The notes beneath the pieces are model-generated. The model had not been told where the DNA came from. It made no database searches and saw nothing but the letters and a program-made list of their open reading frames with translations. A DNA stretch of 64,000 nucleotides, from contig CAMTXH010000003.1 of assembly GCA_947085655.1 (NCBI GenBank), forward strand, positions 29,850-93,849. Direction: 5' to 3'. A program made the translations under genes and the position numbers. The first letter of the stretch is position 1. Each line of letters opens with the position of its first letter. Below are positions 18,480 through 52,164 of this stretch, piece after piece. The stretch comes from an uncultured Omnitrophica bacterium (GTDB taxonomy: Bacteria; Omnitrophota; Gorgyraeia; JACQQV01).

Positions 18480-20565
18480 CTCGAGCGAACTTCTCCTTGA
18501 AATCGGCACGGAGGAAATTCCGTGGTCCTACCTTGAGGGCCTTGGGGATCCCGAGCGCGGTCTCAATGCCCTTGTGAAAACGCTCCTTCCTGAATCCTTC
18601 CGGGATGAAGCAGAAATCAGGAGTTTTCAGACGCCCTGCCGGATCGTCCTTTGGGTCCTGGGACTTCCTCCATTTGATGAAAGGAAAGAGGAGGTTGTGG
18701 GTCCCAGGAAAGAGGCCTGCTATGGCTCCGACGGGAAGCCGACGGCCGCGCTTCAGGGATTCTTGAAAAGTAAAAATGCGGCTGCTAGAGATTTGACTGA
18801 GGAAAAAGGACGGATGGTCATTCGGAGAAGCGTCCGGACTTCCACCGAAACTCTTTTAAAGATCCAAATCCAGCATCTTGTCCAGCTTTTGAGCTTTCCC
18901 AAAATGATGCGTTGGAATGAGAGGGATATCCGTTTCCCGAGACCGGTCCGATGGCTTCTCTGTCTTTACAACGGGAAGGTTCTTCCGCTTTCAGACCTCC
19001 CCTTCAAGGCGGATCGAAAAACGTTCGGCTTGGGGCCGTTCAAAAAACCGCGTAGTATCCAAAAGCCGCCGGAATACTTCTCCTTTTTAAAAAAGGAGGG
19101 GATTCTTCTGGAGGAATTTTCCACACCCGACGGAGAAGGGGAACGGAAACGGACCATCCGGAAGCAATGTGAGCAGCTGGTCAGGCGGCTTGGGGGAGAT
19201 CCGGCCCGGATCGACCCGGCGCTTCTGGCTGAGGTGACAAACCTTGTCGAAAAACCGTTCCTTTTCGCCGGCACGGTCAATAAAACCTATCTTGATCTTC
19301 CGAAAGAGGTGTTGATTGCGAGCATGGCGAAGTATCAGCGGCTTTTTGCGGTGGAAGACCGCCGCGGAAAACTCCTTCCTTCTTTCATCGCCTGCGCCAA
19401 CGGAAGACCGTCTTTGGTCAAAATCCGGAAAAACTACGAGCAGGTATTAAATGCGCGTCTTGAGGATGCCCACTTCTTTTTCACAGCGGACATGCGCGAA
19501 ACACTCTCCCGGAAACGGGACCGGCTGAAACAGCTTATCTATCATCGAAAACTCGGGACGATGTTCGATAAATCGGAACGGATGGCAGAGGTGGCTTCGG
19601 CCCTTGCCGGGAAGGTCGGAGTTCAGGAATTCGCATTGGCTCAGGCCGCACGGCTTGCCAAAAATGACCTTGTGACGGCAATGGTCAAAGAATTTCCGTC
19701 GCTTCAGGGGGTGATCGGGTACTATTACGCGCGGAGGGAAGGGGTTTCGGAGGAGATTTCCCGCGCCCTTTGGGAGCAGTATTTGCCGAAGGGAACCGAT
19801 GCGGAACTCCCCAAAACGGCGCTGGGGGCGGCCCTTTCGTTCCTTGAAAAACTCGACCATCTGACCGGCTTTTTCCATGCGGGTGAAGTGCCGACCGGAA
19901 GCATGGACCCCTACGGTCTCCGGAGGGCCGCCAACGCCCTTTTCAGGATTCTCCTCGAGAGAAAATGGCATCTTCCTTTTGCGGAACTGGTCGAGAAAAA
20001 CCTCGAGCGCTTTTCGGCTGCCCTCGAAACCCGGTTGAAACTCCATGAATTTCTTCTGGAGCGTTTGAAGAGCATTTGTCGGGAGAGGGGATACCGGAGC
20101 GACTTGGTTGAAGCGGTGTCGCGTGACCTCCGGGACCCGGTCGAAACGGAAAAGAAGCTGAGTTCCCTTAGTCAGATGATGTCCACGCAGAAGGAGACCT
20201 TTTTGGCCGCTTTCAAGGTGGTGGAGCGGACCCACAACATCCTGAAACCGGTACAACCCAAAGAACAGCAGGGACTTGGGAGCGTCCGGCCGGACCTTTT
20301 CCAGGATGAAATTGAAAAAAACCTCTGGAACTTATACAATACAGGGAAGCGTCCGATTGAGAAACTGATCGCCGAAAGCGCCTGGAGCCAGGCCACGGCC
20401 CGTTATGCCCAGACCTTTTCGGAAACGTTGCATCAGTTTTTTGATAAGGTTTTGGTTAATGTGGAAGATCCGGGCATCCGGCGTAACCGCCTGGCTCTGA
20501 TGAAAGAAATCAACGAACTCTATACCAAGCCGGTGGCGGATCTCTCCAAACTGATCATTGAATAA
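18451..20565 (+). CDS. glyS: glycine--tRNA ligase beta subunit
   Basis: The 704-aa product contains LLLEIGTEEIP. It overlaps glyQ by 29 nt because no alternative in-frame start exists. Confidence 0.9.
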   Translation: MKPKKQKQNNSSELLLEIGTEEIPWSYLEGLGDPERGLNALVKTLLPESFRDEAEIRSFQTPCRIVLWVLGLPPFDERKEEVVGPRKEACYGSDGKPTAALQGFLKSKNAAARDLTEEKGRMVIRRSVRTSTETLLKIQIQHLVQLLSFPKMMRWNERDIRFPRPVRWLLCLYNGKVLPLSDLPFKADRKTFGLGPFKKPRSIQKPPEYFSFLKKEGILLEEFSTPDGEGERKRTIRKQCEQLVRRLGGDPARIDPALLAEVTNLVEKPFLFAGTVNKTYLDLPKEVLIASMAKYQRLFAVEDRRGKLLPSFIACANGRPSLVKIRKNYEQVLNARLEDAHFFFTADMRETLSRKRDRLKQLIYHRKLGTMFDKSERMAEVASALAGKVGVQEFALAQAARLAKNDLVTAMVKEFPSLQGVIGYYYARREGVSEEISRALWEQYLPKGTDAELPKTALGAALSFLEKLDHLTGFFHAGEVPTGSMDPYGLRRAANALFRILLERKWHLPFAELVEKNLERFSAALETRLKLHEFLLERLKSICRERGYRSDLVEAVSRDLRDPVETEKKLSSLSQMMSTQKETFLAAFKVVERTHNILKPVQPKEQQGLGSVRPDLFQDEIEKNLWNLYNTGKRPIEKLIAESAWSQATARYAQTFSETLHQFFDKVLVNVEDPGIRRNRLALMKEINELYTKPVADLSKLIIE

Positions 20566-38406: not shown

Positions 38407-39831
38407 GTGGATCTTTTTCGACAGACTGCCCATTCCCTCATCCGTTTGATTCAGGAAAAAAAGAGTTCTCCTTCCGAAATCATCGCCTCCCTCCGGCAGC
38501 GGATCAAAGCGGTTGACCCCTCCCTTCACGCCTATCTTTCGCTCGACGGGGAATTACAGGCGCCGGAATCCTTCCCCAAGGGCTCGTTTCAGGGTCTTCC
38601 CATCGGCATCAAAGACAATATCTGCGTGAAAGGGCGGCTCACGACCTGTTGTTCCAAAATTCTTGAAGGGTTCAGATCTCCTTATCATGCCACCGTGGTC
38701 AGGCGGCTTTTGGCTCAAGGTGTTTTTCCTTTCGGCCGGACAAACATGGATGAATTCGCCTTCGGGTCAAGCACGGAAACCTCCTGTTACGGCGTTACCT
38801 TCAATCCGTGGGATCGAAAGCGGATTCCGGGAGGGTCCAGCGGCGGCTCTGCCGCGGCCGTGGCTGCGGATGAGGCGATCTGGGCCCTTGGTTCGGATAC
38901 CGGCGGTTCCATCCGTCAGCCGGCTTCTCTTTGCAGCGTGGTTGGTCTCAAACCGACTTATGGGAGAGTTTCGCGGTACGGTCTGGTTGCGTTTGCCTCG
39001 AGCCTCGACCAGATTGGACCGATCACAAAGGACGTGGAGGATGCGGCTCTTCTTTTGGGGGTGATTGCCGGACGGGATGAGATGGATTCAACCTCAGCCG
39101 ATCTCCCGGTTCCCGATTACCGGAAAGCATTGAAAAAAGAGATCCGTGGGATTCGCCTCGGTGTTCCGAAAGAGCATTTTGAAAAAGGACTCGATCCGGA
39201 AGTGGAAGCGATCGTTCGTCGAGGCATCGACACCCTCAAACAACTAGGGGCTGAAATCAAGGAAGTGTCACTCCCGCATTCCCCTCAGGCGGTTGCGGTC
39301 TATTACATCGTCGCTCCGGCAGAAGCAAGTTCCAACCTTGCCCGTTTTGACGGCGTGCAGTACGGGTACCGAGAGGAAGGGGAGGACCTTCTTTCCACTT
39401 ACAGTCTCACCCGCAAGAGGGGTTTCGGGAAGGAAGCGAAACGGCGGATTATGCTCGGGACATACGCCCTTTCCAGCGGTTATTACGACGCCTATTACCT
39501 GAAGGCCCTCAAAGTTCGGACACTCATCAAACAGGATTTTGACCGGGCCTTCCGCAACTGCGATTGCCTTGCGGGGCCGGTGTCGCCGACCGCCGCGTTC
39601 CGACTCGGGGAAAAACTGGAAGATCCCCTGACGATGTATCTTTCGGATATTTATACGATCCCCGCGAACCTTGCCGGCATTCCGGCAATATCCATTCCGT
39701 GCGGCTTCACTCGAAGCGGCCTTCCGGTCGGGATTCAGTTTCTTGCGAGGCCCTTTGCGGAAGAGACCCTTTTTCAAGTGGCCTACGCCTTTGAGCAGAA
39801 CACCGATTTTCACGAGCGAAAGCCCCTTTGA
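38407..39831 (+). CDS. gatA: Glu-tRNA(Gln) amidotransferase subunit A
   Basis: The product has the amidase signature GGSSGGSAAAVA. It has a GTG start. Confidence 0.95.
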   Translation: MDLFRQTAHSLIRLIQEKKSSPSEIIASLRQRIKAVDPSLHAYLSLDGELQAPESFPKGSFQGLPIGIKDNICVKGRLTTCCSKILEGFRSPYHATVVRRLLAQGVFPFGRTNMDEFAFGSSTETSCYGVTFNPWDRKRIPGGSSGGSAAAVAADEAIWALGSDTGGSIRQPASLCSVVGLKPTYGRVSRYGLVAFASSLDQIGPITKDVEDAALLLGVIAGRDEMDSTSADLPVPDYRKALKKEIRGIRLGVPKEHFEKGLDPEVEAIVRRGIDTLKQLGAEIKEVSLPHSPQAVAVYYIVAPAEASSNLARFDGVQYGYREEGEDLLSTYSLTRKRGFGKEAKRRIMLGTYALSSGYYDAYYLKALKVRTLIKQDFDRAFRNCDCLAGPVSPTAAFRLGEKLEDPLTMYLSDIYTIPANLAGIPAISIPCGFTRSGLPVGIQFLARPFAEETLFQVAYAFEQNTDFHERKPL

Positions 39832-41270
39832 TGAGCGATTACGAACCGGTCATCGGTCTTGAGGTGCATGTGGAACTCTCCACCGAGACCAAGGTTTTCT
39901 GCGGCTGCCCGACCCGTTTCGGGGCGGAGCCAAATACGCAGACCTGTCCGGTTTGTCTGGGGTTTCCCGGGTCGCTGCCGGTCTTAAACCGGAAAGCACT
40001 TGAATACGGCATCAAAACGGCCCTCGCTCTTCATGGGACGATCTCCCCCCTCATCAAATTTGACCGGAAAAATTATTTTTACCCTGATCTTCCGAAAAAC
40101 TACCAGATCTCCCAATACGATCTTCCCCTTGGGAGAGGCGGGTACATCATGGTGGAAGGGGATACCGGAAAGAAAAAAATCCGGATTCACCGGGTTCATC
40201 TGGAGGAGGATACGGGGAAACTGATTCATCCGGAGGCAAGCCCCACGAGTCTTCTGGATTTCAACCGCTCGGGCATCCCTCTCCTTGAGATTGTGAGTGA
40301 GCCGGACATCCGGACGCCGGATGAGGCGCATGCGTATGCGACAGCCCTGAAAGCGAACCTTGAATATCTGGATGTGTCGGACTGCAACATGGAGCAGGGG
40401 AGTCTCCGGTGTGATACGAACGTCTCGGTCCGGAAGAAGGGACAAGAAACCTTCGGAACCAAAGTAGAGATCAAAAATCTCAACTCATTCCGCGCGGTCA
40501 AGTTGAGCGTGCAGTATGAAATCGACCGCCAGATCCGCCAACTGGAAGCGGGCGGGAAACTGGTTCAGGAAACAAGGCTCTGGGATCCGGCGAAAAACGC
40601 GACTTTTCCGATGCGCTCGAAGGAGTATGCGCATGACTACCGTTATTTCCCGGAGCCGGACCTTGTCCCGTTTGTTCTTTCCAAAGGGGAAATCGAAGCG
40701 CTCCGGGAAACGATTCCGGAACTTCCGGAGGAGCGGATGGAACGGTTTGTGAAGGGCTATCAACTCCCCCCTTATGACGCCAAGGTGTTGACGAGTGAGA
40801 AGGCCCTTTCCGACTACTTTGAGGCCTCTGTCCGGCTTTTTTCGAATCCCAAGCAAGTTGCCAACTGGGTGATCGGTCCCGTATTAGAGCATGCCAAGAC
40901 TCCGGAAGGGATCGCCTCTTTTGCCGTTCCTCCGGAACGTCTGGTGGAACTCCTCCGGTTTCTGGAGTCGGGGAAAATCACCCAACTGGCGGCCAAACAG
41001 GTTCTGGAGGAGATGGTGCGGACAAAAGAACCGGCCGCCGCCGTGATCCAGCGCGAGAATCTCTCTCAAATCCAGGATACGGGGACCCTGGAACACCTCA
41101 TTCAGGAGGCGATTCGGGAAAATCCGAAGACGGTCGCAGACTACCATCAGGGGAAAGAAAATGCTATGATGTATCTGATAGGCCAGGTGATGAAAAAGAC
41201 AAAAGGAAGCGCCAATCCCAAAAAAGTGAATGTACTTCTCAAGGAAAAATTGGAGGAGGCAAAACCATGA
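39828..41270 (+). CDS. gatB: Glu-tRNA(Gln) amidotransferase subunit B
   Basis: The 480-aa product belongs to the GatB/YqeY family. Confidence 0.95.
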   Translation: MMSDYEPVIGLEVHVELSTETKVFCGCPTRFGAEPNTQTCPVCLGFPGSLPVLNRKALEYGIKTALALHGTISPLIKFDRKNYFYPDLPKNYQISQYDLPLGRGGYIMVEGDTGKKKIRIHRVHLEEDTGKLIHPEASPTSLLDFNRSGIPLLEIVSEPDIRTPDEAHAYATALKANLEYLDVSDCNMEQGSLRCDTNVSVRKKGQETFGTKVEIKNLNSFRAVKLSVQYEIDRQIRQLEAGGKLVQETRLWDPAKNATFPMRSKEYAHDYRYFPEPDLVPFVLSKGEIEALRETIPELPEERMERFVKGYQLPPYDAKVLTSEKALSDYFEASVRLFSNPKQVANWVIGPVLEHAKTPEGIASFAVPPERLVELLRFLESGKITQLAAKQVLEEMVRTKEPAAAVIQRENLSQIQDTGTLEHLIQEAIRENPKTVADYHQGKENAMMYLIGQVMKKTKGSANPKKVNVLLKEKLEEAKP

Positions 41271-42553
41271 AGAAGCGTCTTTTGGGGGTCCTGCTGCTTT
41301 TGTTTCTCTTCGGTGCCGGTTCGTTTTCCCTGAATGCCGCCGAGAAGCCCGCGAAGGAAGAAAGCAATTTCTATGAGGACCTGGAGCTCTTCACGGACGC
41401 CCTTTCCATCATTCAGCTCGATTATGTGGAGGAAAAGACCTCCAAGGATCTGATTTACGGGGCGCTCAAGGGGATGCTGAAGAGTCTGGATCCCCACAGT
41501 CAGTTCATGACGCCGGACATCTATCAGGAGGTCAAGATCGAAACCGAGGGGGAATTCGGGGGACTCGGTATCGAAATCACCATTCAGGATGAACTCCTCA
41601 CGATTATTTCCCCCATTGATGACACCCCCGCCCACCGGGCCGGACTGAGGGCGGGGGACCGGATCGTCAAAATCGACGGAGAACTCACCCGCGACATCAC
41701 CCTTCTGGATGCGGTCAAGAAACTCCGCGGAAAACCGGGGACCGAGGTCACGTTGAGCATCTTGCGGGAAAAGGAGGAAAAGCTCATGGACCTGAAGGTT
41801 GTCCGGGACGTGATCAAAATTAAAAGCATCAAGGAAGCGGAGATCCTGGGGGACGATATCGGTTATATCCGGCTCTCCGAGTTTCAGGAAAATACCCCCC
41901 GTGACCTTAACCGCGCATTGAAGCAACTGGAGGATAAAAAGATCAAGGGTTTGGTGCTGGATCTCCGGAATAACCCCGGAGGACTTTTGAATACCGCAGT
42001 GTCCGTTGCGGAACATTTTGTTCCGAAAGGGGAATTGATCGTTTACACGAAAGGGAGGAGGGAAAACCAGGATATCGAATTCCGCTCGCGGGGCAGATAT
42101 GCCCCGCCCTCTTATCCGGTTGTGGTTTTGATTAACGGGGGATCCGCCAGCGGTTCGGAAATTCTGGCGGGGGCGATTCAAGATCATCGGCAGGGGATCC
42201 TTCTCGGGACAAAGACGTTCGGAAAGGGATCCGTCCAGACGGTCGTGCCGCTCAAAGACGGTTCGGCGGTCCGGTTGACAACGAGCAAATACTACACTCC
42301 CAAGGGCCGGATGATTCACGAAAAGGGGATTGAGCCGGATGTGGAGGTCCCTTTTGTGGAGCGGAAGGTCCCCGAGAAGGAAAAGAGCGAAGAAGTCTTC
42401 GAAAAAATTGAAGAAGAAAAAGAGACCGAAGAGACCAAAGAAGAAAAGGAAAGAAAGCGAAAGTTGCAGGAAAAAGTCTTTCTGGATAATCAACTGGAAC
42501 GGGCCATCGACCTGATCAAAGGGATTGATGTCTATCGGACCATCGGCGGATGA
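41267..42553 (+). CDS. ctpA: carboxyl-terminal processing protease (S41)
   Basis: The product has a signal peptide, a PDZ domain and an S41 catalytic domain. It has a Lys/Glu-rich C-terminus. Confidence 0.9.
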   Translation: MKKRLLGVLLLLFLFGAGSFSLNAAEKPAKEESNFYEDLELFTDALSIIQLDYVEEKTSKDLIYGALKGMLKSLDPHSQFMTPDIYQEVKIETEGEFGGLGIEITIQDELLTIISPIDDTPAHRAGLRAGDRIVKIDGELTRDITLLDAVKKLRGKPGTEVTLSILREKEEKLMDLKVVRDVIKIKSIKEAEILGDDIGYIRLSEFQENTPRDLNRALKQLEDKKIKGLVLDLRNNPGGLLNTAVSVAEHFVPKGELIVYTKGRRENQDIEFRSRGRYAPPSYPVVVLINGGSASGSEILAGAIQDHRQGILLGTKTFGKGSVQTVVPLKDGSAVRLTTSKYYTPKGRMIHEKGIEPDVEVPFVERKVPEKEKSEEVFEKIEEEKETEETKEEKERKRKLQEKVFLDNQLERAIDLIKGIDVYRTIGG

Positions 42554-42567
42554 AAGGAAAGGATCCG

Positions 42568-43569
42568 ATGCATGTCTTGGGAATTGAAAGTTCCTGTGAC
42601 GAGACCGCCTGTTCCGTGGTGAGGGACGGGATGGAGATTCTCTCGAATGTCGTTGCTACCAGTCTCGAGGAGCACCGCCGTTACGGGGGCGTGATTCCCG
42701 AAATTGCCTCCCGCTCTCATGTGGAATGGCTCATCCCGGTCCTGGAAGAAGCCCTTTCAAAAGCAGAGCTTTCCTACCGGGAGATCGATTTGATTGCGGC
42801 CACGCAAGGTCCAGGTCTGCCCGGGTCTCTTTTGGTCGGGCTTTCAGCGGCAAAAGCGCTCAGTTTCGCGCGGGAGATTCCCTTCATCGGTGTGGACCAT
42901 CTTCACGCCCATCTCTACGCCTGCTTGATGCAGCCGGGTCCCCCCTCTTTTCCTTTTGTCGGGATGGTTGTCTCCGGGGGGCACACCGCCCTTTTCTGGA
43001 TAGAGGATGTCCACCGGATCCGTCGGATCGCCGAAACCCAGGATGATGCTTGCGGGGAAGCGTTTGACAAAGTTGCAAAGATTCTCGGGCTCGGATATCC
43101 GGGGGGACCAGAAGTCGAAAAGCGGGCGCGGGCGGGAAATCCGTCTCGATTCCGCTTTCCGCCACCGAGGGTTCAGGAAGGGTCCCTGGACTTCAGTTTC
43201 AGCGGCATCAAAACAGCGGTCTTGTATCAGGTGAAAGATCTTCCAAAACCCCTGACGGAAAAAGTCGTTCAAGATCTTTGCGCCGGTTTCCAGGAGACAG
43301 TCATTCAGACGCTGAGTAACCATGCCCTTGAGGCCTGTCGGCGTTTTAAAGCGGAGGCGCTTCTGGTCGGAGGAGGGGTCATTGCCAATCAGGCGCTCCG
43401 GGAGGCCCTGGAAAAACGCTTTGTGAAAGAGAACCGCCAAGTCCTTTTCCCGCCGAAGGGGCTTTCCCTTGATAATGCGGCGATGGTGGCGGGTCTGGGC
43501 TACCATCTTTATCGGAAGGGACTCCACTCCCAACTCGATCTTGGAGTTGAACCGCTTGGGGTGAATTGA
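42568..43569 (+). CDS. tsaD: tRNA N6-adenosine threonylcarbamoyltransferase
   Basis: The product starts MHVLGIESSCDETA. An RBS AAAGGAAAGGA is present. The ORF-track start at 42550 overlaps ctpA. Confidence 0.9.
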   Translation: MHVLGIESSCDETACSVVRDGMEILSNVVATSLEEHRRYGGVIPEIASRSHVEWLIPVLEEALSKAELSYREIDLIAATQGPGLPGSLLVGLSAAKALSFAREIPFIGVDHLHAHLYACLMQPGPPSFPFVGMVVSGGHTALFWIEDVHRIRRIAETQDDACGEAFDKVAKILGLGYPGGPEVEKRARAGNPSRFRFPPPRVQEGSLDFSFSGIKTAVLYQVKDLPKPLTEKVVQDLCAGFQETVIQTLSNHALEACRRFKAEALLVGGGVIANQALREALEKRFVKENRQVLFPPKGLSLDNAAMVAGLGYHLYRKGLHSQLDLGVEPLGVN

Positions 43570-43571
43570 AC

Positions 43572-44225
43572 ATGAACGGAATGGACATTCTTTTTCGGTT
43601 GCTTCTGGCTCTTTTGTTCGGAGGGGTGATTGGGTTTGAACGGGAGCGCCAGGGGCGGGCGGCCGGGTTCAGGACCCATATTTTGGTTTGCGTCGGGGCC
43701 TGTCTTGTGATGTGCCTTGGACTCTATTTGGCCGAACAGTATCCGAATTCTGACCCTTCCCGGATTGCGGCGCATGTCATCAGCGGCATCGGTTTTCTGG
43801 GAGCAGGGACGATTCTCCGGTTTCGTGTTTCTGTCCGGGGGCTGACCACCGCAGCGAGTCTCTGGACCGTTTCTGTCATCGGCCTTGCGGTCGGCGCCGG
43901 TTTCTATTTGGCCGCCCTCCTTGCCACCGGTGCGGTTTTGGTCACCCTTTACTGGCTCAATTTTCTGGTGGACAGAGTGATGACCCGGCGGGACTGGTAC
44001 CGGATGCTCCTTCTTGAAATGACCGGCAGTTTTGAAGGACTCCAGAATATCCGGGAAATCCTCGCCGCCTACCATGCGGAGATCAAGGATTTCAACATCG
44101 AAAAAAAAGAGGGCGGAACGGTTTCTTTAAGTTTGGACCTGCGACTTCTTTCTCCCCGGGATGAGGAGCCGATTGCCAAGGAGCTGTCAGGGTTGGAAGA
44201 CGTCAAACGGGCGGTTTGGAAGTAA
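43572..44225 (+). CDS. mgtC: MgtC/SapB family membrane protein
   Basis: The product has the MgtC N-terminal domain (GFERE..). The ATG follows a GGGGTGA RBS. Confidence 0.8.
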   Translation: MNGMDILFRLLLALLFGGVIGFERERQGRAAGFRTHILVCVGACLVMCLGLYLAEQYPNSDPSRIAAHVISGIGFLGAGTILRFRVSVRGLTTAASLWTVSVIGLAVGAGFYLAALLATGAVLVTLYWLNFLVDRVMTRRDWYRMLLLEMTGSFEGLQNIREILAAYHAEIKDFNIEKKEGGTVSLSLDLRLLSPRDEEPIAKELSGLEDVKRAVWK

Positions 44226-44242
44226 AACGAAGGAGGGATCAC

Positions 44243-44782
44243 ATGGCGATATTACGCGGCAAGGGAAAGGTTGAGGAAAAAGTGCTGGATGTGGATGCCA
44301 GTATGCAGGGGACGCTTTCCTTCCGGGATCCGGTGAATCTGAAAATTAACGGCAAGTTTGAAGGGACACTGGATACGCGGGGATCCTTGACGGTCGGGGA
44401 CAATGCGGTGGTTCAGGCAAACATCAAGGGAGAGACCATTATCATTTCAGGGAAGGTAAGCGGGAACATTACGGCACAGGAGATTATCCGGATCCTCCCA
44501 CCGGGCGAGGTGATCGGCGATATCCAGACACCCCTTCTCGAAGTCCAGGAGGGGGCCATCTTTCACGGAAATTGTCAGATGGGCAAGACAAAATCCATTT
44601 CTTCAGGCGCAAGAAGAGAACTTCTCACCGCAGAGGAACTGGCGCGCTATCTGGAAGTGGAAACCTCCTCCATCTTGGAATGGGCCGAACGGGGAAAGAT
44701 CCCGGGGGTTCGGGAGGGGAATTTCTGGAAATTTGACCGCGCCAAGATTGACGAGTGGGTCACGAACGAAAAGCTGAAATAA
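44243..44782 (+). CDS. bactofilin domain protein fused to C-terminal HTH (excisionase/MerR-type) DNA-binding domain
   Basis: The bactofilin beta-helix repeats read KINGKFEGTLDTRGSLTVGDNAVVQANIKGETIIISGKVSGNITA. The C-terminal HTH region reads LLTAEELARYLEVETSSILEWAERGKIPGV...WKFDRAKIDEWV. An AAGGAGG RBS is present. Confidence 0.7.
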   Translation: MAILRGKGKVEEKVLDVDASMQGTLSFRDPVNLKINGKFEGTLDTRGSLTVGDNAVVQANIKGETIIISGKVSGNITAQEIIRILPPGEVIGDIQTPLLEVQEGAIFHGNCQMGKTKSISSGARRELLTAEELARYLEVETSSILEWAERGKIPGVREGNFWKFDRAKIDEWVTNEKLK

Positions 44783-44788
44783 GGGATT

Positions 44789-45091
44789 GTGGAGGAAAAA
44801 CTTTTAAACATCAACGAGGCGGCGGCGGTCCTTTCGCTATCGATTCAGGATGTGGAGTTCCTGGTCAACGAAGGGAAAATCCCGGCCTTTCATCTGGACG
44901 GCAAGTATCTCCGCTTCCGGCGTGAAGATCTGGTTGCTTACCGGAGGACGGTTTTCTACCAGTCGGAGGAAGGAGGGGTAGTCCGATATACGTTAGGGGA
45001 CGGCCTTCACGACTTCTTTTATTTTAACGACTTCTACCTTTTTTCCCTCCTTTTCATTTTCCTCATCCTCTTTAGCATCCTGAAGATCTGA
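44789..45091 (+). CDS. small HTH (excisionase-family) domain protein with hydrophobic C-terminal tail
   Basis: The N-terminus reads LLNINEAAAVLSLSIQDVEFLVNEGKIPAFHLDGKYLRFRREDL. The C-terminus FYLFSLLFIFLILFSIL looks like a membrane anchor. It has a GTG start. Confidence 0.55.
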   Translation: MEEKLLNINEAAAVLSLSIQDVEFLVNEGKIPAFHLDGKYLRFRREDLVAYRRTVFYQSEEGGVVRYTLGDGLHDFFYFNDFYLFSLLFIFLILFSILKI

Positions 45092-45156
45092 ATTTCCCTT
45101 CCGACCGCATGTTACATTGATAAAATTGTAAATGTAACCTGTTGTGTCACAAGGAC

Positions 45157-45185
45157 TTGACACTTTACCCGAGGTGTGGTATACT
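45157..45185 (+). promoter_or_regulatory. sigma70 promoter TTGACA-N17-TATACT about 200 nt upstream of pilin gene; inverted repeat GTTACATT-N12-AATGTAAC (45111-45138) just upstream
   Basis: Read from the sequence. Confidence 0.6.
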
Positions 45186-45199
45186 TTTTCCCGCATACC

Positions 45200-45370
45200 G
45201 ATAAGGGCAAACCGCGGGAGACCGCGGGACATCCGCGAGTGAGGCATTCATCCTCCGGATTCCCCGCCAGAGCGGCGGGGAGCAAAGCCATGGGTCCTTA
45301 AAACGGTGAAGGGTGTCAGAACACCTAACACCACACGCCGTTTTACAGGATCGCCAGGCTGCCGAAGTAA
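45200..45370 (+). promoter_or_regulatory. structured 5' leader with c-di-GMP-I (GEMM)-like motifs
   Basis: GGGCAAACC-CCGCGG-GAGA-CCGCGG-GAC (45205-45230) mirrors the Vc2 riboswitch P2 arm GGGCAAACC-stem-GNRA-stem-GGGAC. GCAAAGCC lies at 45282-45289. Further hairpins are CCCCGCC-agag-GGCGGGG and UAAAACGG...CCGUUUUA. The spacing between the two motif blocks is longer than in the canonical aptamer. Confidence 0.3.
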
Positions 45371-45386
45371 CGAAGGAGAATGCCTC

Positions 45387-45842
45387 ATGAGAAAACGGGA
45401 AAAGGGATTTACCCTTGTCGAAGTCTTAACTACCTCTTGCATTGTCTCCCTGATTGCCCTCCTGGCGATACCCAATTTTGTCAGGGTTTGGCAGGATGTG
45501 AATGAAAGGACCGCCCAGGAAACACTCCGGACCATTCACCAGGCGATGATTTCCTACCGGGGATTCAATTTAAGTTATCCATCCGATCTTACGGAATTGG
45601 CCGATTCCCAAGGGGGCCCTTACTATCTGAATCAGAGTGTGGCAAGCGGGAAAAAATCGGGCTACCTTTATCGTCTGGATTCGAGCGACAAATATACGTT
45701 CCGCGTTACCGCGATTCCAGAAAATCCCGGTGTGAGCGGAAAACGGTCCTTTGTCGTGACGGAAGCAGGCCTTATCGAGACAAACTCCAGTACTGTCACC
45801 ATTGTTCCGAACGCCACAGAACCTGGCCTGGACGGCAGGTAA
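45387..45842 (+). CDS. type IV pilin / pseudopilin (prepilin-type N-terminal cleavage/methylation domain)
   Basis: MRKREKGFTLVEVLTTSCIVSLIALLAIP carries the class III signal G/FTLVE. A GAAGGAG RBS is present. Confidence 0.8.
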   Translation: MRKREKGFTLVEVLTTSCIVSLIALLAIPNFVRVWQDVNERTAQETLRTIHQAMISYRGFNLSYPSDLTELADSQGGPYYLNQSVASGKKSGYLYRLDSSDKYTFRVTAIPENPGVSGKRSFVVTEAGLIETNSSTVTIVPNATEPGLDGR

Positions 45843-45873
45843 TAATAGCCCTCTTCAAACCCCCAGAATTCTC

Positions 45874-45902
45874 TTGATTTTTCGTACATAATATAGTATA
45901 AT
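45874..45902 (+). promoter_or_regulatory. sigma70 promoter TTGATT-N17-TATAAT upstream of TPR protein gene
   Basis: Read from the sequence. Confidence 0.55.
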
Positions 45903-45929
45903 ATAACGAGTTATAACTTTGGAGGATTC

Positions 45930-48797
45930 GTGTCCAGACGGAAAATAATTTTTCTTTTTATCCCAATTTTTCTTTTATCGACTCCTTTAGAAGGGGCGGT
46001 GAATGAAGATGCAATCCGCTACCGGATCCGGGGCTACCAACTCCAGCACCAGGGCTATGTGGAGGAAGCGATCGAACTCTACCGGAAGGCGATCGAGGCG
46101 GACCCGAACTATGCTGCTCCCCACAATGACCTGGGCGTCATTTACGAAGAACGGGGGGATCTGAAACTGGCGGAAGGGGAGTACCTGGAAACACTCCGGA
46201 TCGACCCCCAATACGTCGATGCCTATTCCAATCTTGCCATTCTCTACGGCAAACAGAATCAAAGAGAAAAGATGCTTGAAATGCTGAAAAAGCGGGTTGA
46301 CTTGGGGGAGCCGGAGGATATCGGAACCCGCGAGGCGCAGGCGAAACTGGATTCTTTGGGTGTGGTGACGGAAATTCCCGAGAAACCCCGGCCCGCTGTT
46401 CCTCCTTTTGAGAAAAGACCTTCTGCCGAAATCAGGCCCCTGAAGGAGATTCCGGAAGCCCCTCCGGTTGTAGAGGCAAAGGAGGAGCAAAAGGCGCTCC
46501 GGGAGGAAATGAAGGCGGTTAAAAAGGAAATTTTAGAGAAAGAAACGGCTGCGCGAAAACTGGAGGATCGGGAGAAAGCGGTTCAGGTTGTTGAAGAGCC
46601 TGCTGCTGAAAAAGCGGCGGCACTCCGGAATGAAGGGTTGAAACACCACCAAAAGGGCGAGCTGGATGAGGCGATCCGGAATTACCGGGAGGCGATCCGC
46701 ATGAACCCCGATTTTGCAACCGCCTACAACGACCTGGGAATTGCCCTGGAGGAAAAAGGGTTTCTGGAAAACGCCGAGACCCAATACCTGAATGCACTGG
46801 CACTCGATCCTTCCTACACCCATGCCCTCTATAACCTCGCTCTTCTCTACGCCAAAATGGAACGGCGGAAAGAGGCGATTCAAACCCTTGAAGAATTTCT
46901 GAAAAAGAAAGTGGACAGCAAGCGGAGCGGCGTCGCCCGGGCCAAACTCGAAGTCCTTTTGAATGAGGAAAAAGAAGAGGCCGAGCGGCTTGCCCGGGAA
47001 CAAGAGGCCAAACGGCTCGAAGCAGAGGCGAAACGCCGCCAGGAGGAGGAAGCAAGGAAGCGGGAAGAGGCTTTGGCGTCTCTCCGGGGGGAAGTCGAGA
47101 AAGAGGTCAAAGCCGAATATGAAGAGAAATTCAAACTGACCCAATTTTTTGAGCAGGGCAAGGTCGCTTTTCAAAACGGGGATTACCCGACGGCAAAAGA
47201 CCTCTTTGAAAAACTCCTCGTGATCGACCCGGAAAACGAAATGGGAAAAACCTATCTCGCCAAGGTTGAGGAAGCCGTTCAGGAAGCGGAACGGAAAAAA
47301 GAGATAGAAGCCGAAAGACAACGACAAGAGGCGGAAGAGGCGCGCCGGATGGAAGAGGAGAAAAGAGTGAAAGAGGAAGAGAAACAAAAGCGTACGACAG
47401 CCCTTTATGATGAAGCGAAAGAGATGTACCGTTCCGGCAATCTGGATAATGCCCTTCTCCGCTTTCAGGAGATTCTGATCCTCGAACCGGAACATCCCTA
47501 TGCAGGACGGTATGTGGATCGGATTCGGGAACGAAAAGAGGAACTTGAGGCGGAGAGGATCGCCCGTGAGAAGGCGGCCCGTGAGGAAGACCAGGCGCGC
47601 CGGCGCCAAATCGCCGAGTATTTTGAGGAAGCGGAAAAACAGGTTCGGGAGCGTTCCTACGACGAAGCAATCAAGACGTATCGAGAACTTCTTTTACTCG
47701 ACCCGGAGCATAAAGAGGCGAATCGACGGCTTGAGGAGATCCGGGAGACCCTCCGGAAAAAGAAAGAGGAAAAACATCTCGCCAAAATCCGCAAAAAAGA
47801 GACACGTCTTGAAGGTGCCGAGAAGCGGATGAAAGAATCGGCTCAGACGTATTACCAAGCAGGGCTCAAAGCGTTCCGGGAGGAAAAACTGGATCAGGCC
47901 GAATATGCGTTCCGAAAGGTCCTTTCATACGACAAAAGTCACAAAGAGGCGAATAAGCAGCTTGTCCTCTTGATGGAAAAACAGGCGGAGCTGGAGGCAA
48001 GGGTCTGGCGGGAGGAACAGGAGGCCATTTTCCGAAAGGAATACACCCCCGCCGAAGAAAAACGGCTTTACGAACGGGCAAAGGCGGCTTATGACGCGGG
48101 GGATTATCGGATGGCGCAGAAAACGCTCGAGTATCTCCTTTTTCTTGACCCGAATCATCCGTTTGCGCCGAGGGATCTGGATGAAGTGGAGGCCAAAATC
48201 CGGGTAGCGCATCAAAAGGAGGCGGTGGCCGAGGCGGCCCTCAAAAAGGAAGCTCGGAAAACCCTTTCCCGTCCTCCCTCTGTCAGTGTGACTGAACCTT
48301 TTCTCCGGGCTCAAACCAAGCCCCAGGAAATCCCCTATTTCCGGCCGTCCCCTTCCGATCGGCTGGATGCTTTCGTGGAGGATGAACCGGTTTGGACAGA
48401 CGCGCACCAGGCGATGGAAAGGGTCGCCCTTGCCTACCATCAGCAGGCGTATGACCTTCAACGTCAGAACGACGTTGAAGGGGCCATTGCCCAATACCGG
48501 AAGGCGATGGCGATCCGCTCGACACCGGGGGCGGCGAACAGTTTGGGTGTCTTGTATGAAAAGAAGGGATGGTACACCCAAGCGGAACAGTATTACAAAA
48601 AAGCGCTGAGACTTGATCCGGCGTATCTGGCGGCCCATACGAATCTGGCCCTTCTCTATGAGGATTTGGAGCGCAAGGAGGAGGCCCTGGCCCACTGGCG
48701 GATCCGGGCCGAGCAAGGGAAAAAGGGAGAGGCGTGGACTGAGCACGCCCGGCGCCGCCTTGAGGCGGTTCAGGCGGTTCCTGAAAAGAACCCTTGA
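45930..48797 (+). CDS. large secreted TPR-repeat protein with interspersed Lys/Glu/Arg-rich coiled-coil segments
   Basis: The 955-aa product has a signal peptide and a GTG start after a GGAGGA RBS. Pairs of TPR motifs (AxxYxNLGxxY) recur about 8 times and are separated by EEAERLAREQEAKRLE-type charged helices. Confidence 0.75.
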   Translation: MSRRKIIFLFIPIFLLSTPLEGAVNEDAIRYRIRGYQLQHQGYVEEAIELYRKAIEADPNYAAPHNDLGVIYEERGDLKLAEGEYLETLRIDPQYVDAYSNLAILYGKQNQREKMLEMLKKRVDLGEPEDIGTREAQAKLDSLGVVTEIPEKPRPAVPPFEKRPSAEIRPLKEIPEAPPVVEAKEEQKALREEMKAVKKEILEKETAARKLEDREKAVQVVEEPAAEKAAALRNEGLKHHQKGELDEAIRNYREAIRMNPDFATAYNDLGIALEEKGFLENAETQYLNALALDPSYTHALYNLALLYAKMERRKEAIQTLEEFLKKKVDSKRSGVARAKLEVLLNEEKEEAERLAREQEAKRLEAEAKRRQEEEARKREEALASLRGEVEKEVKAEYEEKFKLTQFFEQGKVAFQNGDYPTAKDLFEKLLVIDPENEMGKTYLAKVEEAVQEAERKKEIEAERQRQEAEEARRMEEEKRVKEEEKQKRTTALYDEAKEMYRSGNLDNALLRFQEILILEPEHPYAGRYVDRIRERKEELEAERIAREKAAREEDQARRRQIAEYFEEAEKQVRERSYDEAIKTYRELLLLDPEHKEANRRLEEIRETLRKKKEEKHLAKIRKKETRLEGAEKRMKESAQTYYQAGLKAFREEKLDQAEYAFRKVLSYDKSHKEANKQLVLLMEKQAELEARVWREEQEAIFRKEYTPAEEKRLYERAKAAYDAGDYRMAQKTLEYLLFLDPNHPFAPRDLDEVEAKIRVAHQKEAVAEAALKKEARKTLSRPPSVSVTEPFLRAQTKPQEIPYFRPSPSDRLDAFVEDEPVWTDAHQAMERVALAYHQQAYDLQRQNDVEGAIAQYRKAMAIRSTPGAANSLGVLYEKKGWYTQAEQYYKKALRLDPAYLAAHTNLALLYEDLERKEEALAHWRIRAEQGKKGEAWTEHARRRLEAVQAVPEKNP

Positions 48798-48822
48798 CAA
48801 CCCTCTAGGCGCAGGATATACT
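48794..48822 (+). promoter_or_regulatory. consensus sigma70 promoter TTGACA-N17-TATACT upstream of polA, immediately followed by GAAAACGTCCC motif
   Basis: Read from the sequence. Confidence 0.55.
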
Positions 48823-48907
48823 GAAAACGTCCCACATTTTTTCGTAAAATACCCACAAAATCTCATGTCGAGCCCGCGTCCCGTGTTTTCCCTTATGTGA
48901 TTCCCGA

Positions 48908-51562
48908 ATGAAAAAGGAAAGGGCTTTTTTGATCGACGGTAACGCCATGTGTTACCGTGCCTACTACGCCATCCGTTCGTTGAGTACGCGGGACGGAAGA
49001 CCGACCAACGCCGTCTACGGCTTTATGGCGATGCTCAAAAAACTCCTCGCGGAGGAAAAGCCGGACTATCTGGCGGTTTCTTTCGATTTGAAAGGGGAGA
49101 CCTTCCGAAAAAAGGCCTTCGAATCCTACAAAATTCACCGTAAACCGATGCCCGATGATTTGGCGGAGCAGATGCCCGTGGTTAAGGAGATGCTCGGGTA
49201 TTACCGAATTCCCATTTTTGAGAAAGAAGGGTACGAGGCGGATGATCTCCTCGCCACCCTTTCCCGCCGCCTCTCCGGCAAAGGCATTTCAGTTTATATC
49301 GTGACGGGGGACAAAGATATGCTGCAACTGGTCTCCGACAACATTTTCGTCTATAACGCCCACAAGGAGGGATTGATTTACGGACGAAAAGAGGTCCAGG
49401 AGCGTTTCGGAGTCGGTCCGGAAAAGATTGTGGAACTGATCGGCCTTTGCGGGGATTCCAGTGACAATATCCCGGGCGTACCGGGGATCGGTGAAAAAAC
49501 AGCAATGGGTCTCATTCAAAAATTTGGGACGGTCGAAAAAGTCCTCTCCAACGTGGATAGAGTGGAAGGAGAATCGAGGCGGCGCGCCTTAAAGCAACAT
49601 GCCGGGCAGGCGCGGCTTTCGAGGGAACTGGCCCTTTTGGTCCAGGACGCCCCTTTGGAGGTCTCGCTGGAGGCGCTCCGGCCAAAAACACCCGACGGGG
49701 AAAAACTTTTCCAGTTTTTCAAGTCGCTTGAGTTTAAAACATTCCTGCCGGAGTTTGTCCCGGAACATCCCGAAGGGGGCGATTATTGCCTGATCCAAAC
49801 CCAAAAGGAGCTTGAAGATTTTTTCAAAAAGCTCCGTTCTGTCAAAAAATTCGCCTTTGATTTTGAAACGACGTCAGAGGACGCAATGAAGGCGGAGATC
49901 GTCGGGATCTCCTTTTCCTGGGAGGAGGGGGAGGCCTTTTACGTCCCATTCGGGGATAAGGGGTTCCCGGAATCCGAAGTTTTGGAGGGACTCCGGAACA
50001 TTCTGGAAGACCCCGACGTTTTAAAAATCGGGCAGAACATCAAGTACGAAATGATGATTCTCGCCCAGAGGGGCATTTCACTCCGGGGAATCTCTTTTGA
50101 TACGATGATCGCCTCCTATCTTCTGAACCCCTCCAGACCCAACCATAACCTCGGTGAGATTGCGCTCGAGTATCTGTCCAGGCGAAAGACGCCGATTACA
50201 GAACTCATCGGGAAAGGAAGGTCCCAGAAATCAATGGCGGAGGTGCCGGTTGAGAGGGTCACGGCCTACGCCTGCGAGGACAGCGACCTCACCTTCCGCC
50301 TGGGAAACGTTCTCTCCAAAGAACTCCGGAAGGAAAATCTGGAGGAACTTTTTGAGACGATGGAGCGGCCTCTGATCGGGGTTTTGGCCTCCATGGAACA
50401 GGCGGGGGTTGCGATTGACGCCCCTCTCCTAAAGGAGCTGACGGGAGAGATGGACCGGAAACTGAAGAAACTGACCCAGGACATTTTTGAAATGGCCGGT
50501 TCCGAATTCAACATCAACAGTCCCAAGCAGCTGCAGGAGATTCTCTTCCGGAAACTGAGACTCCCGATTCTCAAACGTACCAAAACCGGCGCCTCAACCG
50601 ACGCCTGGGTTCTGGAGCAATTGGCTGTGATCCATCCCCTCCCTAAAACCATCGTTCAGTACCGGGAAATTGCCAAACTCAAATCAACGTATGTGGACAC
50701 CCTCCCGAATCTGGTTCATCCGAAGACCGGACGGATCCACGCCTCTTTCAACCAAACCGTCACCGCCACCGGACGGCTCTCCTCCTCCGATCCCAACCTC
50801 CAGAATATTCCTGTCCGGACTGAAGAGGGGCGCAAAATCCGGAAGGCCTTTATCCCGCGCGAAAAGGGATGGTGTCTTGTCTCCTTCGATTACTCGCAGA
50901 TTGAACTCCGGATTCTGGCCCATCTTTCGAAAGACGACGCCTTGAAGGAGGCCTTTCGAAAGGGACAGGATGTTCATCGTCTCACGGCGAGTCTCATCTA
51001 CGATGTTCCGGAGGAAGAGGTGGAGGACCCGATGCGGGAGACGGCAAAGACCGTGAACTTCGGGATCCTTTACGGAATGAGCCCCTTCGGGCTTTCCCGG
51101 GACCTTGGGATTGATGTGGGGCAGGCGAGGATGTTCATTGACGCTTACTTTGAACGATACCCGAAAGTGAAAACATACATTGAGAGGCAGATTGAGGAGG
51201 CGAGGGAGGAAGGGATGGTCACCACCCTTTTTAATCGCCGACGGGTTCTTCCGGAAATCCGGAGCCAGAACATGAGCGAACGTCAATGGGGGGAGCGGAT
51301 TGCCATCAATGCGCCGATTCAGGGAACCGCCAGCGACCTCATTAAAATGGCAATGATTGAGATTCACAGGGAACTGGAGAAGCGGAAGAGCCGAGGTGGG
51401 ATGGTGATCCAGGTGCACGATGAACTCGTCTTTGATATGCCGGAGGAGGAAGAAAGGATTCTCTCTCCCCTCATTCAGGAAAAAATGGAGAAGGGGACGA
51501 AGCTTTCGGTTCCGATTCAAGTGACGGTGAAGCGGGGAAAAAACTGGATGGAAATGGAATGA
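48908..51562 (+). CDS. polA: DNA polymerase I
   Basis: The 884-aa product has a 5'-3' exonuclease domain, a 3'-5' exo-like domain and a polymerase domain. Confidence 0.95.
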   Translation: MKKERAFLIDGNAMCYRAYYAIRSLSTRDGRPTNAVYGFMAMLKKLLAEEKPDYLAVSFDLKGETFRKKAFESYKIHRKPMPDDLAEQMPVVKEMLGYYRIPIFEKEGYEADDLLATLSRRLSGKGISVYIVTGDKDMLQLVSDNIFVYNAHKEGLIYGRKEVQERFGVGPEKIVELIGLCGDSSDNIPGVPGIGEKTAMGLIQKFGTVEKVLSNVDRVEGESRRRALKQHAGQARLSRELALLVQDAPLEVSLEALRPKTPDGEKLFQFFKSLEFKTFLPEFVPEHPEGGDYCLIQTQKELEDFFKKLRSVKKFAFDFETTSEDAMKAEIVGISFSWEEGEAFYVPFGDKGFPESEVLEGLRNILEDPDVLKIGQNIKYEMMILAQRGISLRGISFDTMIASYLLNPSRPNHNLGEIALEYLSRRKTPITELIGKGRSQKSMAEVPVERVTAYACEDSDLTFRLGNVLSKELRKENLEELFETMERPLIGVLASMEQAGVAIDAPLLKELTGEMDRKLKKLTQDIFEMAGSEFNINSPKQLQEILFRKLRLPILKRTKTGASTDAWVLEQLAVIHPLPKTIVQYREIAKLKSTYVDTLPNLVHPKTGRIHASFNQTVTATGRLSSSDPNLQNIPVRTEEGRKIRKAFIPREKGWCLVSFDYSQIELRILAHLSKDDALKEAFRKGQDVHRLTASLIYDVPEEEVEDPMRETAKTVNFGILYGMSPFGLSRDLGIDVGQARMFIDAYFERYPKVKTYIERQIEEAREEGMVTTLFNRRRVLPEIRSQNMSERQWGERIAINAPIQGTASDLIKMAMIEIHRELEKRKSRGGMVIQVHDELVFDMPEEEERILSPLIQEKMEKGTKLSVPIQVTVKRGKNWMEME

Positions 51563-52164
51563 TCCTCGGCGTCACCGGCTCCGTCGGGACAGGGAAAACG
51601 ACCGTCTCCAGGATGTTTGCCCGGAAGGGTGGCTTTCGGATCGATGCAGACCGACTTGCCCGCGAGGCGCTTCGGAAGGGAGCCCCTCCGTACCGGGCGG
51701 TTGTCCGGGCATTCGGAAGGGGAATCCTCCGCTTCGACCGAAGCGTGGACCGGAAGAAACTGGCGGAAATCGTTTTCCGGAATGAGCGGAAGAGAAAACT
51801 TCTTAACCGGCTGATTCATCCCTATGTGATCCGGAGAATCCGTGAAGCAATCCGGAGGAAAAAGGGGAAATGGATCGTCGTGGAAGTTCCCCTGTTGCAC
51901 GAAGCAGGGCTTGTCCGGCTCTTCGATCGGGTCATGACCGTCTCGACGAGTCGAAACGTTCAGGAAACAAGGTGGCGTAAACGGGGACTTCCCCTCGGGG
52001 CTCTCCGGGAGCGTCGCTCATCGCAGTGGCCCCTTTCATACAAAAGGCGGCACTCGGACTTCATTATCGATAATAGCGGAAGTAAGACCAAAACGGAGGA
52101 ACAAGTCCACCGGATTTGGAAAAAGTTGCACCTTGAAAGGAGAGGAAAAACAAAAAATGGCTGA
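51559..52164 (+). CDS. coaE: dephospho-CoA kinase
   Basis: The product has a P-loop [11 protein letters not shown]. Confidence 0.9.

Follow-up and report, generated by a model that had tools for sequence, protein, structure and literature searches.

A strictly coupled gene pair in the Omnitrophota encodes a bactofilin-winged helix-turn-helix fusion and a predicted tail-anchored winged helix-turn-helix partner

The locus lies in a 64,000-nucleotide (nt) stretch of DNA, hereafter the window, from an uncultured Omnitrophica bacterium (assembly GCA_947085655.1, contig CAMTXH010000003.1, positions 29,850 to 93,849). All genes from 39828 to 52164 of the window are on the plus strand. They are, in order, gatB, a CtpB-like S41 protease gene, tsaD, an MgtC gene, an open reading frame (ORF) fusing a bactofilin to a helix-turn-helix domain of the winged type (wHTH), a 100-amino-acid (aa) helix-turn-helix (HTH) gene referred to here as HTH2, a pilin gene, a gene for a 955-aa tetratricopeptide repeat (TPR) protein, polA and coaE. 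The interval from the fusion to the TPR gene consists of three independent units, not one module. The first is the end of a long housekeeping operon, gatCAB-ctpA-tsaD-mgtC, which closes with the fusion and HTH2. The second is a separate transcription unit with a sigma-70 promoter, a predicted cyclic di-GMP (c-di-GMP)-I riboswitch and a type IV pilin gene, and the third encodes the secreted TPR/coiled-coil protein. Units two and three are a clade-specific insertion lying between the fusion/HTH2 pair and polA. An earlier note, made by a model from the DNA letters, had drawn attention to the four-gene neighborhood. What is notable is instead the phylum-wide coupled pair of fusion and HTH2. The anatomy of this pair is secure, and from it we infer a mechanism.

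The fusion gene is a single uninterrupted ORF whose start codon is preceded by GAAGGAGGG. As the earlier note had proposed, it joins a bactofilin to an excisionase/MerR-type HTH. Both Pfam families scored above their cut-offs, Bactofilin (PF04519) over residues 14-112 (E 7.7e-25, 87.4 bits vs. 27.9) and HTH_17 (PF12728) over 127-175 (E 5.6e-11, 43 bits vs. 27), as did the NCBIfam model TIGR01764 'excise' (39.6 vs. 28.8). A profile search of the PDB with the fusion retrieved BacA (2n3d, E 9.5e-11) and TtBac (6ria, E 1.3e-8). An AlphaFold2 (AF2) model was made from a 116-sequence alignment, with a mean predicted local distance difference test score (pLDDT) of 79. The model has a beta-helix with pLDDT about 90 over residues 30-110 (blocks 87-94), a disordered linker at 116-125 with pLDDT below 50 and then a three-helix winged HTH. 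Across the family 6-16 aa separate the bactofilin from the HTH. Foldseek comparison with the PDB matched the beta-helix to TtBac of T. thermophilus (6rib, target TM-score (TMt) 0.80) and to C. crescentus BacA (2n3d, TMt 0.82, root mean square deviation (rmsd) 2.1 Å, 101 columns). The C-terminal domain matched BldC (6ama, rmsd 1.4 Å, 26% identity) and further phage Xis, RdfS, RacA and MerR regulators. By the Pfam score and the TtBac and BacA fold matches the N-terminal part is a bactofilin domain.

Profile alignments place F107 of the fusion at the polymerization residues TtBac F105 and BacA F130. The column has Phe in the window protein and Leu as family consensus (alignments A1 and A2). TtBac 6ria is the F105R mutant and the F130R variant of BacA is found in PMC12448750; both mutations block polymerization. 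The N-terminus of the fusion family reads M-[L/A/M/I]-[G/K/L/I/R]-[R/K] (counts M-[L43/A35/M19]-[G42...]-[R50/K38]) with a mean charge of +2.1. In the membrane-targeting sequence (MTS) of BacA, MFSKQAKS, F2 and K4/K7 are critical (PMC12448750). Judged by its residues, the fusion N-terminus resembles a bactofilin MTS without Phe2.

Homologues of the fusion were examined in several collections. The 120 best matches among 5.8 billion proteins were all 172-198 aa long and all two-domain, and the named ones are Candidatus Omnitrophica/Omnitrophota. With one genome scanned per GTDB species, 430 genomes were seen to encode a relative. A missed stop between two genes or a misassembly, the artefact that had been considered at the outset, is therefore excluded. 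The best 80 of the 430 are Omnitrophota metagenome-assembled genomes (MAGs) or third-party annotation (TPA) MAGs labelled 'uncultured Planctomycetia' with the same synteny; Omnitrophota is a member phylum of the Planctomycetes-Verrucomicrobia-Chlamydiae (PVC) group. More than 116 orthologues have the architecture in common. A HMMER search of 1.84 billion representatives at 50% identity gave about 20 clusters at E<=1e-30 and beyond them a handful of remoter full-length fusions (29-42% identity), which are again Omnitrophota where they can be named. The other matches among the 150 listed covered the bactofilin part only or were fragments. Database labels for the homologues are 'polymer-forming cytoskeletal protein' or 'excisionase family DNA binding protein'. 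No description of a bactofilin-HTH fusion was found in the literature searched (bactofilin with HTH, Omnitrophota, domain fusions), in keeping with the earlier remark that the architecture is not a standard one.

The fusion was also compared with the MADS defense protein MAD1. This candidate was rejected, as NF047737 scored 43.4 bits vs. a cut-off of 80 and the PADLOC mad1 matches reflect domain-level HTH similarity only. Nor do any defense genes lie near the fusion.

HTH2 begins with GTG 6 nt past the fusion stop codon. Its residues 5-53 match HTH_17 (PF12728, 38.7 bits vs. 27), and TIGR01764 falls just under the cut-off (27.6 vs. 28.8). The protein is made up of a wHTH (residues 3-53), a linker of 15-49 residues, the motif DFFYFNDFY and a hydrophobic tail. 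AF2 places the wHTH elements at 8-15, 19-27 and 45-61 (helices) and 34-36 and 40-44 (strands), followed by a short helix at 69-78 and a strongly hydrophobic helix at 81-99 (pLDDT 83-93). The tail is 16-19 aa long across the family with a mean Kyte-Doolittle hydropathy of 2.61. The motif is invariant in alignment A4 and present in 77/79 HTH2 family members. The best fold matches are the RacA DNA-binding domain (5i44, 26% identity) and then BldC (6ama). HTH2 is therefore predicted to be a tail-anchored membrane protein with one C-terminal transmembrane (TM) helix and an N-terminal wHTH, and the hydrophobic C-terminal tail that had been read from the translation holds up.

Gene order was scored in 81 non-redundant loci, which carry L numbers here, by calling ORFs and comparing them with the window proteins. 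In 78/78 genome loci with room for it, HTH2 is the gene directly 3′ of the fusion, the gap between the two being -32 to +196 nt. The two genes overlap by 4-32 nt in 21 loci, which suggests translational coupling. In the reverse test, metagenomes were scanned with the HTH2 pattern DF[FLV]Y[FY]NDF. Of the 66 loci obtained, 64 have the fusion directly 5′ of HTH2 and 1 more has it 444 nt upstream. The MgtC gene, which the earlier note had correctly placed just upstream, is directly 5′ of the fusion in 70/75 loci and likewise in the distant locus L095. It is preceded nearly always by gatB, ctpA, an optional polysaccharide deacetylase gene and tsaD. The pair is also kept together in another context, as L091 (3912-5569) has a fusion of 37% identity with HTH2 alongside. 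The fusion and HTH2 are a strictly coupled, phylum-wide gene pair in Omnitrophota.

Two loci depart from this arrangement. In L176 (2327-2731), the last of the 66 loci of the reverse test, HTH2 stands straight after mgtC with no fusion upstream. In L087 (8607-12098), where the fusion is 81% identical, HTH2 is absent and the next gene after the fusion encodes a secreted protein longer than 1100 aa. The L091 pair has SPOR-domain and TPR-PDZ protein genes upstream in place of MgtC, and these neighbors hint at a link to the septum or cell wall. In remoter relatives the region 3′ of the pair holds larB/larC-like, PDZ, HAMP and fatty-acid synthesis genes; polA is found within 8 kb downstream in 9/59 loci. 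A third, stand-alone HTH_17 gene of 65 aa occurs about 4 kb 3′ of the pair in many Omnitrophota loci (L001 12235-12432; L005 12734-12931; similar in L017, L018, L027, L032, L033, L041, L066, L068 and L069). It comes after the larB/larC-like, PDZ and HAMP genes and before a fatty-acid/polyketide-type synthase cluster.

Omnitrophota also have a second, paralogous clade of bactofilin+HTH_17 fusions, with about 29% identity to the window protein (L094 6001-6567; L096 179-754; also L097 and L098). In L096-L098 there is no tail-anchored partner gene, and the fusions adjoin histidine kinase, sigma-54 regulator, GvpA gas-vesicle and AAA genes. The L094 fusion adjoins MamF/MmsF-like, Volactin-type actin and ParA/CbiA-like genes, and a 73-aa gene lies downstream of it at the end of the contig. 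These contexts are of organelle type and hint at a possible use of the same design in placing organelles.

Table 1. Features of the MgtC to TPR interval, in window coordinates, with the basis of each assignment
Feature	Position	Strand	Basis
MgtC-family membrane protein	43566..44225	+	PF02308, 140.8 bits
Bactofilin-wHTH fusion gene, 179 aa plus stop, ATG 44243	44243..44782	+	Pfam, NCBIfam, homologues, AF2, Foldseek
N-terminal basic tail, residues 1-13 (MAILRGKGK...)	44243..44281	+	Resemblance to bactofilin MTS
Bactofilin beta-helix domain, residues 14-113	44282..44581	+	PF04519, AF2, Foldseek
Disordered linker, residues 114-125	44582..44617	+	pLDDT <50 at 116-125
Acidic C-terminal winged HTH of HTH_17/excisionase/BldC type, residues 126-179	44618..44779	+	PF12728, TIGR01764, BldC fold match
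HTH2, predicted tail-anchored wHTH partner gene, 100 aa, GTG start	44789..45091	+	PF12728, synteny
wHTH domain of HTH2, residues 3-53	44795..44947	+	AF2 elements, fold matches
Juxtamembrane motif DFFYFNDFY of HTH2, residues 75-83	45011..45037	+	Alignment A4
Predicted C-terminal TM tail of HTH2, residues 84-100	45038..45088	+	Hydropathy, AF2 helix
Inverted repeat, 16-nt arms, 81% complementary	45108..45141		Just 5′ of pilin promoter
Pilin-unit promoter of sigma-70 type, TTGACA-17-TATACT plus an extended -10 TG	45157..45185	+	11/12 matches
Predicted c-di-GMP-I (GEMM-I) riboswitch aptamer, large insertions in both hairpins	45196..45366	+	RF01051, 38.4 bits
Candidate anti-ribosome-binding-site segment in aptamer insertion	45239..45254	+	Pairing with 45374-45388 in the minimum free energy fold; inference only
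Pilin Shine-Dalgarno (AAGGAG) and ATG start codon	45374..45389	+	Read from sequence
Type IV pilin-like prepilin, 151 aa	45387..45842	+	G-1/F+1/E+5 motif, N_methyl, TIGR02532
Promoter-like site 5′ of TPR gene, TTGATT-17-TATAAT	45874..45902	+	10/12 matches; consensus match only
Secreted TPR/charged coiled-coil protein, 955 aa	45930..48797	+	TPR_2, K/E/R-rich blocks

How might the pair work? The reading that we favor, tentatively and at somewhat less than an even chance, is a membrane-bound bactofilin scaffold that docks a membrane-anchored HTH partner and possibly tethers DNA, mainly via the partner. Attached by the MTS-like N-terminus, the beta-helix would polymerize at the cytoplasmic side of the membrane, and the polymer would display a regular array of wHTH domains. 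The arrayed domains could then dock the wHTH of co-translated HTH2, as BldC-type domains dock head-to-tail; BldC and RdfS are wHTH proteins that form head-to-tail multimers (PMC5859096; PMC11963761). Any DNA contact would be made by HTH2, with its basic wing and likeness to RacA, and not by the acidic HTH borne on the bactofilin. The outcome would be a membrane-cytoskeleton scaffold that keeps either the nucleoid or some site on the chromosome at the envelope. Bactofilins are known to organize ParB/PadC (PMC5703909), and they also draw BacR, an HTH protein, to the membrane and lower its DNA binding (PMC13649987). HTH2 has an invariant arginine, R42, at the position of BldC R48, and R/K44 at the position of BldC R50 in 78/79 members.

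A series of observations weighs against this reading. Averaged over 116 sequences, the net charge of the fused HTH (54 residues) is -2.8, compared with +6 for the aligned BldC stretch. BldC was aligned with the fusion on the anchors W31=W147 and G35-K36=G151-K152, and the DNA contacts were taken from PMC5859096. BldC R30 reads bases, and the R30A change abolishes DNA binding (PMC5859096). RacA has an equivalent Arg. In the fusion family this position is E in 92/116 and D in 18/116 sequences (E/D in 110/116). The positions of the other BldC contacts K26, K33, R47 and R50 are S, N/E/D, W and D/E, respectively, and that of R48 is K/R/H. Basic contact residues on the recognition helix and wing are thus wanting in the fused HTH (116 sequences). 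Because this domain is acidic and has Glu/Asp at the base-reading Arg of BldC and RacA, DNA binding by it is doubtful. The fused architecture of the earlier note stands; its DNA-binding filament subunit is doubtful. In HTH2 the R30 position is basic in only 38/79 members and Phe in the window; the recognition helix is mostly acidic, so that the basic DNA contacts are retained in part.

Further points on the same side concern docking, the membrane and conservation. Covariation was scored by mutual information with average product correction (MI-APC) over 152 pairs (effective number of sequences, Neff, 112), and the top intra-protein pairs fell in gappy linkers. The signal between the fusion and HTH2 (z 6.8, A167/K168 with V26) was no stronger than that of the fusion x MgtC control (z 6.2). 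The likeness to an MTS is loose, with L/A/M rather than F at position 2. The ctpA, polysaccharide deacetylase, SPOR and PDZ genes among the operon neighbors fit an envelope function as well as they fit one on DNA. Finally, the conservation that counts in favor of the reading, with a median fraction of self-score across the loci of 0.54 for the fusion, 0.54 for gatB, 0.53 for polA, 0.45 for tsaD and 0.41 for MgtC, is biased upward for the fusion since the loci were picked by fusion similarity.

The acidic charge and the loss of base-contact residues count in favor of a purely protein-protein scaffold without DNA, an alternative that we consider possible but on the unlikely side. The wHTH folds would be repurposed as docking modules, and HTH2 would be an anchor or a client. 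With the same reserve, such a pair could organize the envelope, morphogenesis or division, as BacA does with PbpC or LmdC. MerR-like folds that bind protein, CbpM (3ucs) and DafA (9dvi), are among the fold matches. L137 and W147 of the fusion, both invariant, and V139 occupy the BldC head-to-tail interface positions F21, W31 and V23. PbpC, a known client, is a bitopic membrane protein that binds bactofilin by its cytoplasmic N-terminus (PMC12448750), and the contexts of the pair hold genes for a CtpB-like protease, polysaccharide deacetylase, SPOR and PDZ proteins. HTH2, however, has essentially no extracytoplasmic part and no obvious effector domain besides the HTH. It also keeps the basic wing residues typical of DNA-binding HTH_17 proteins, and its best fold match is the DNA-binding domain of RacA.

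The earlier note had also considered a novel regulatory pair. Of this idea the conserved two-gene coupling stands, and the regulatory role itself is improbable in our judgment. Under it, the two proteins would be transcription factors held off DNA by the filament and the membrane, and freed or switched by envelope stress. Two routes would come into question, a switch like that of BacR-BacEF in B. subtilis or release of HTH2 by regulated proteolysis, for which the CtpB-like protease is encoded upstream. BacR is an HTH protein co-encoded with bactofilins that is recruited to the membrane and goes to the nucleoid under cell-wall stress (PMC13649987). The protease with CtpB_N-like, PDZ and S41 parts is in the same operon, and other Omnitrophota have additional small HTH_17 genes in the vicinity. 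Against this, tsaD and mgtC stand between the protease gene and the pair, and the link may be coincidental. Without its own promoter or operator, the pair closes a housekeeping operon. The fusion matches gatB in conservation, an unusual degree for a niche regulator, and the fused HTH lacks the base-reading residues.

The favored scaffold, a bactofilin polymer with one wHTH per subunit together with a tail-anchored wHTH partner, raises a more specific idea, that of nucleotide-independent coupling of cytoskeleton, membrane and chromosome in nucleoid anchoring or segregation. We rate this as unlikely, if worth stating. If true, BldC/Xis-type domains, whose head-to-tail assembly otherwise takes place only on DNA, would be arrayed in advance by the polymer, and this would represent a new design of chromosome anchor.

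The pilin unit is of a different kind. The pilin reads from a true start at ATG 45387 with the prepilin motif MRKREKG/FTLVE, and its class III signal peptide (MRKREKG/FTLVEVLTTSCIVSLIALLAIPNF) has G-1, a hydrophobic residue at +1, E+5 and a hydrophobic helix. N_methyl scored 22.1 vs. 21.2 and TIGR02532 20.8 vs. 16.3. The named pilin equivalogs (PilA, GspG, ComGC) were all under their cut-offs (e.g., ComGC 31.4 vs. 75 and GspG 29.9 vs. 88.85). A gap of 295 nt separates the gene from HTH2. Its promoter is kept in the relatives L088 and L089 (alignment A5). The inverted repeat immediately 5′ of the -35 hexamer could be an operator; the corresponding site in L088 and L089 yielded other short repeats only, and none of this kind.

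The pilin leader folds with -97.5 kcal/mol (z -7.8). A promoter and a structured leader of its own had been assigned to the pilin from the start; both stand, and what had been missed is that the leader matches a riboswitch. RF01051 scored 38.4 bits vs. a gathering score of 35. At the orthologous leaders it scored 69 bits in L088, a compact and canonical aptamer, and 43.9 bits in L089. The window and L089 aptamers have insertions of about 50-70 nt. The segments GGCAAACC, GCAAAGCC and UGCCGAA agree with the c-di-GMP-I consensus, and the aptamer lies between the promoter and the Shine-Dalgarno/ATG, as it does in L088 and L089. On this basis the leader is classed as a c-di-GMP-I riboswitch, with ligand binding predicted. 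The GGC-variant class RF03167 was under threshold (43.6 vs. a gathering score of 59) and the canonical GCAAAGCC is kept, so the element is filed as ordinary class I. Other Rfam matches (mir-4841, mir-1304 and Rp_sR47) were far under their gathering scores.

In the minimum free energy fold the anti-ribosome-binding-site segment (Table 1) pairs over 15 bp, and the pilin Shine-Dalgarno and start codon are sequestered. The complementarity UGAGGCA/UGCCUCA is also present in L089. The expression platform may thus be nested inside the aptamer, and the riboswitch probably acts on translation by way of this segment in the aptamer insertion. L007, the closest GTDB genome, has the pilin with a short intergenic gap and no riboswitch match at the gathering score, so the riboswitch is variable even inside the clade. 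The pilA1 switch of C. difficile belongs to class II. The window pilin is like pilA1 in that a pilin gene is under a c-di-GMP riboswitch, predicted here, and unlike it in the class I aptamer with insertions of ~50 nt in both hairpins and in a platform that is probably translational. For pilA1 c-di-GMP riboswitch control is on record (PMC6200980, PMC6366702). A class I c-di-GMP riboswitch on a pilin in Omnitrophota is useful yet expected biology.

The third unit agrees with its first description as a 955-aa secreted TPR protein with charged coiled coils. TPR_2 scored 163.8 bits over 9 stretches (Pfam), and the repeat blocks alternate with segments that are 40-60% K/E/R. By inspection the N-terminus, MSRRKIIFLFIPIFLLSTPLEGAV, is signal-peptide-like with no Cys lipobox. 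The pilus TPR lipoproteins Tgl and PilW/PilF were rejected as identities, the scores being 91.3 vs. 225 and 81.2 vs. 154 in a protein without a lipobox. TPR orthologues are found only in the close clade of L007, L088 and L089, and the pilin-TPR unit only in the same three, whose fusion proteins are 72-82% identical. The unit is absent from L087 and L090, which are equally close.

That the fusion, HTH2, pilin and TPR protein act together in pilus positioning or polar localization, as the earlier note had suggested, is very improbable: the four genes are adjacent on one strand in the window and three close relatives and the TPR protein shows a weak likeness, under threshold, to Tgl and PilW, but of 59 loci only 1 has a pilin homologue within 4 kb 3′ of the pair and only 2 have a TPR homologue there, equally close relatives do without the unit, remoter ones have the larB/larC-like, PDZ, HAMP and fatty-acid synthesis genes in its place, the pilin has its own promoter and predicted riboswitch, the Tgl/PilW scores are far under their cut-offs with no lipobox, and no second prepilin motif or pilus machinery genes were found elsewhere in the 64,000-nt window.

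The remaining window genes are housekeeping genes such as groES/EL, guaA/B, dnaE, hisS and aspS. Positions 16001-18000 have an odd composition, with an AT skew of -0.155 vs. mostly positive values elsewhere in the window, and at 16561-18509 both strands carry overlapping long ORFs. Among the sampled loci, L087 has GGGTTC(G/A)AG-type repeats in its gatA-gatB interval (3398-3485), which form a palindromic array and gave a false mir-1304 match. L093 (6001-6696) encodes three tandem HTH_17 domains beside a pPIWI_RE (prokaryotic Argonaute-like) gene and is unrelated to the bactofilin pair.

Across a phylum that is for the most part uncultured, the pair is as conserved as core housekeeping genes, and it would be a first handle on cell organization in Omnitrophota. 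Should it tether DNA, the pair would be a chromosome-membrane anchor of a new type; otherwise it would be a clear example of a DNA-binding fold taken over as a docking module of the cytoskeleton. With the canonical bactofilins C. crescentus BacA, T. thermophilus TtBac and H. pylori CcmA the fusion shares the PF04519 beta-helix (TMt 0.80-0.82) and the hydrophobic residue of the polymerization interface (F107), and its short basic N-terminus loosely resembles an MTS. It differs from them in L/A/M rather than F at position 2, in its obligate tail-anchored wHTH gene partner and in a folded wHTH where the C-terminal tail of canonical bactofilins is disordered. Known bactofilins recruit clients in trans by such disordered tails, whereas the fusion hard-wires a folded HTH on each subunit.

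Single-domain relatives of the two HTHs offer a second comparison. BldC, phage Xis and RdfS have their fold in common with the fused HTH (rmsd 1.3-1.5 Å, 26% identity), have no dimerization domain and form head-to-tail arrays. They are strongly basic (+6 in the BldC stretch), whereas the fused domain is acidic (-3) and is without K26, R30, R47 and R50. The chromosome anchor RacA of B. subtilis (5i41/5i44), the best fold match of HTH2, likewise joins a MerR-like wHTH to an oligomerizing or anchoring element. RacA uses a coiled coil and DivIVA rather than a bactofilin or TM helix, and its base-reading Arg is E/D in the fusion.

Bactofilins have been linked to DNA-binding-type proteins in two other systems. 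In M. xanthus BacNOP-PadC-ParB (PMC5703909), a bactofilin scaffold is connected to such proteins in trans via a ParB-like adaptor and ParABS, whereas in the fusion the HTH is in cis and of the excisionase/MerR class, with DNA binding putative. In B. subtilis, BacR (YhbD) is an HTH protein co-operonic with the bactofilins BacE and BacF and held at the membrane (PMC13649987), as is predicted for the window pair. BacR is a separate, soluble DUF4004 dimer, whereas the window pair has one HTH joined to the bactofilin and a second with a predicted TM anchor of its own. The ParB and BacR systems, the nearest precedents, both act in trans.

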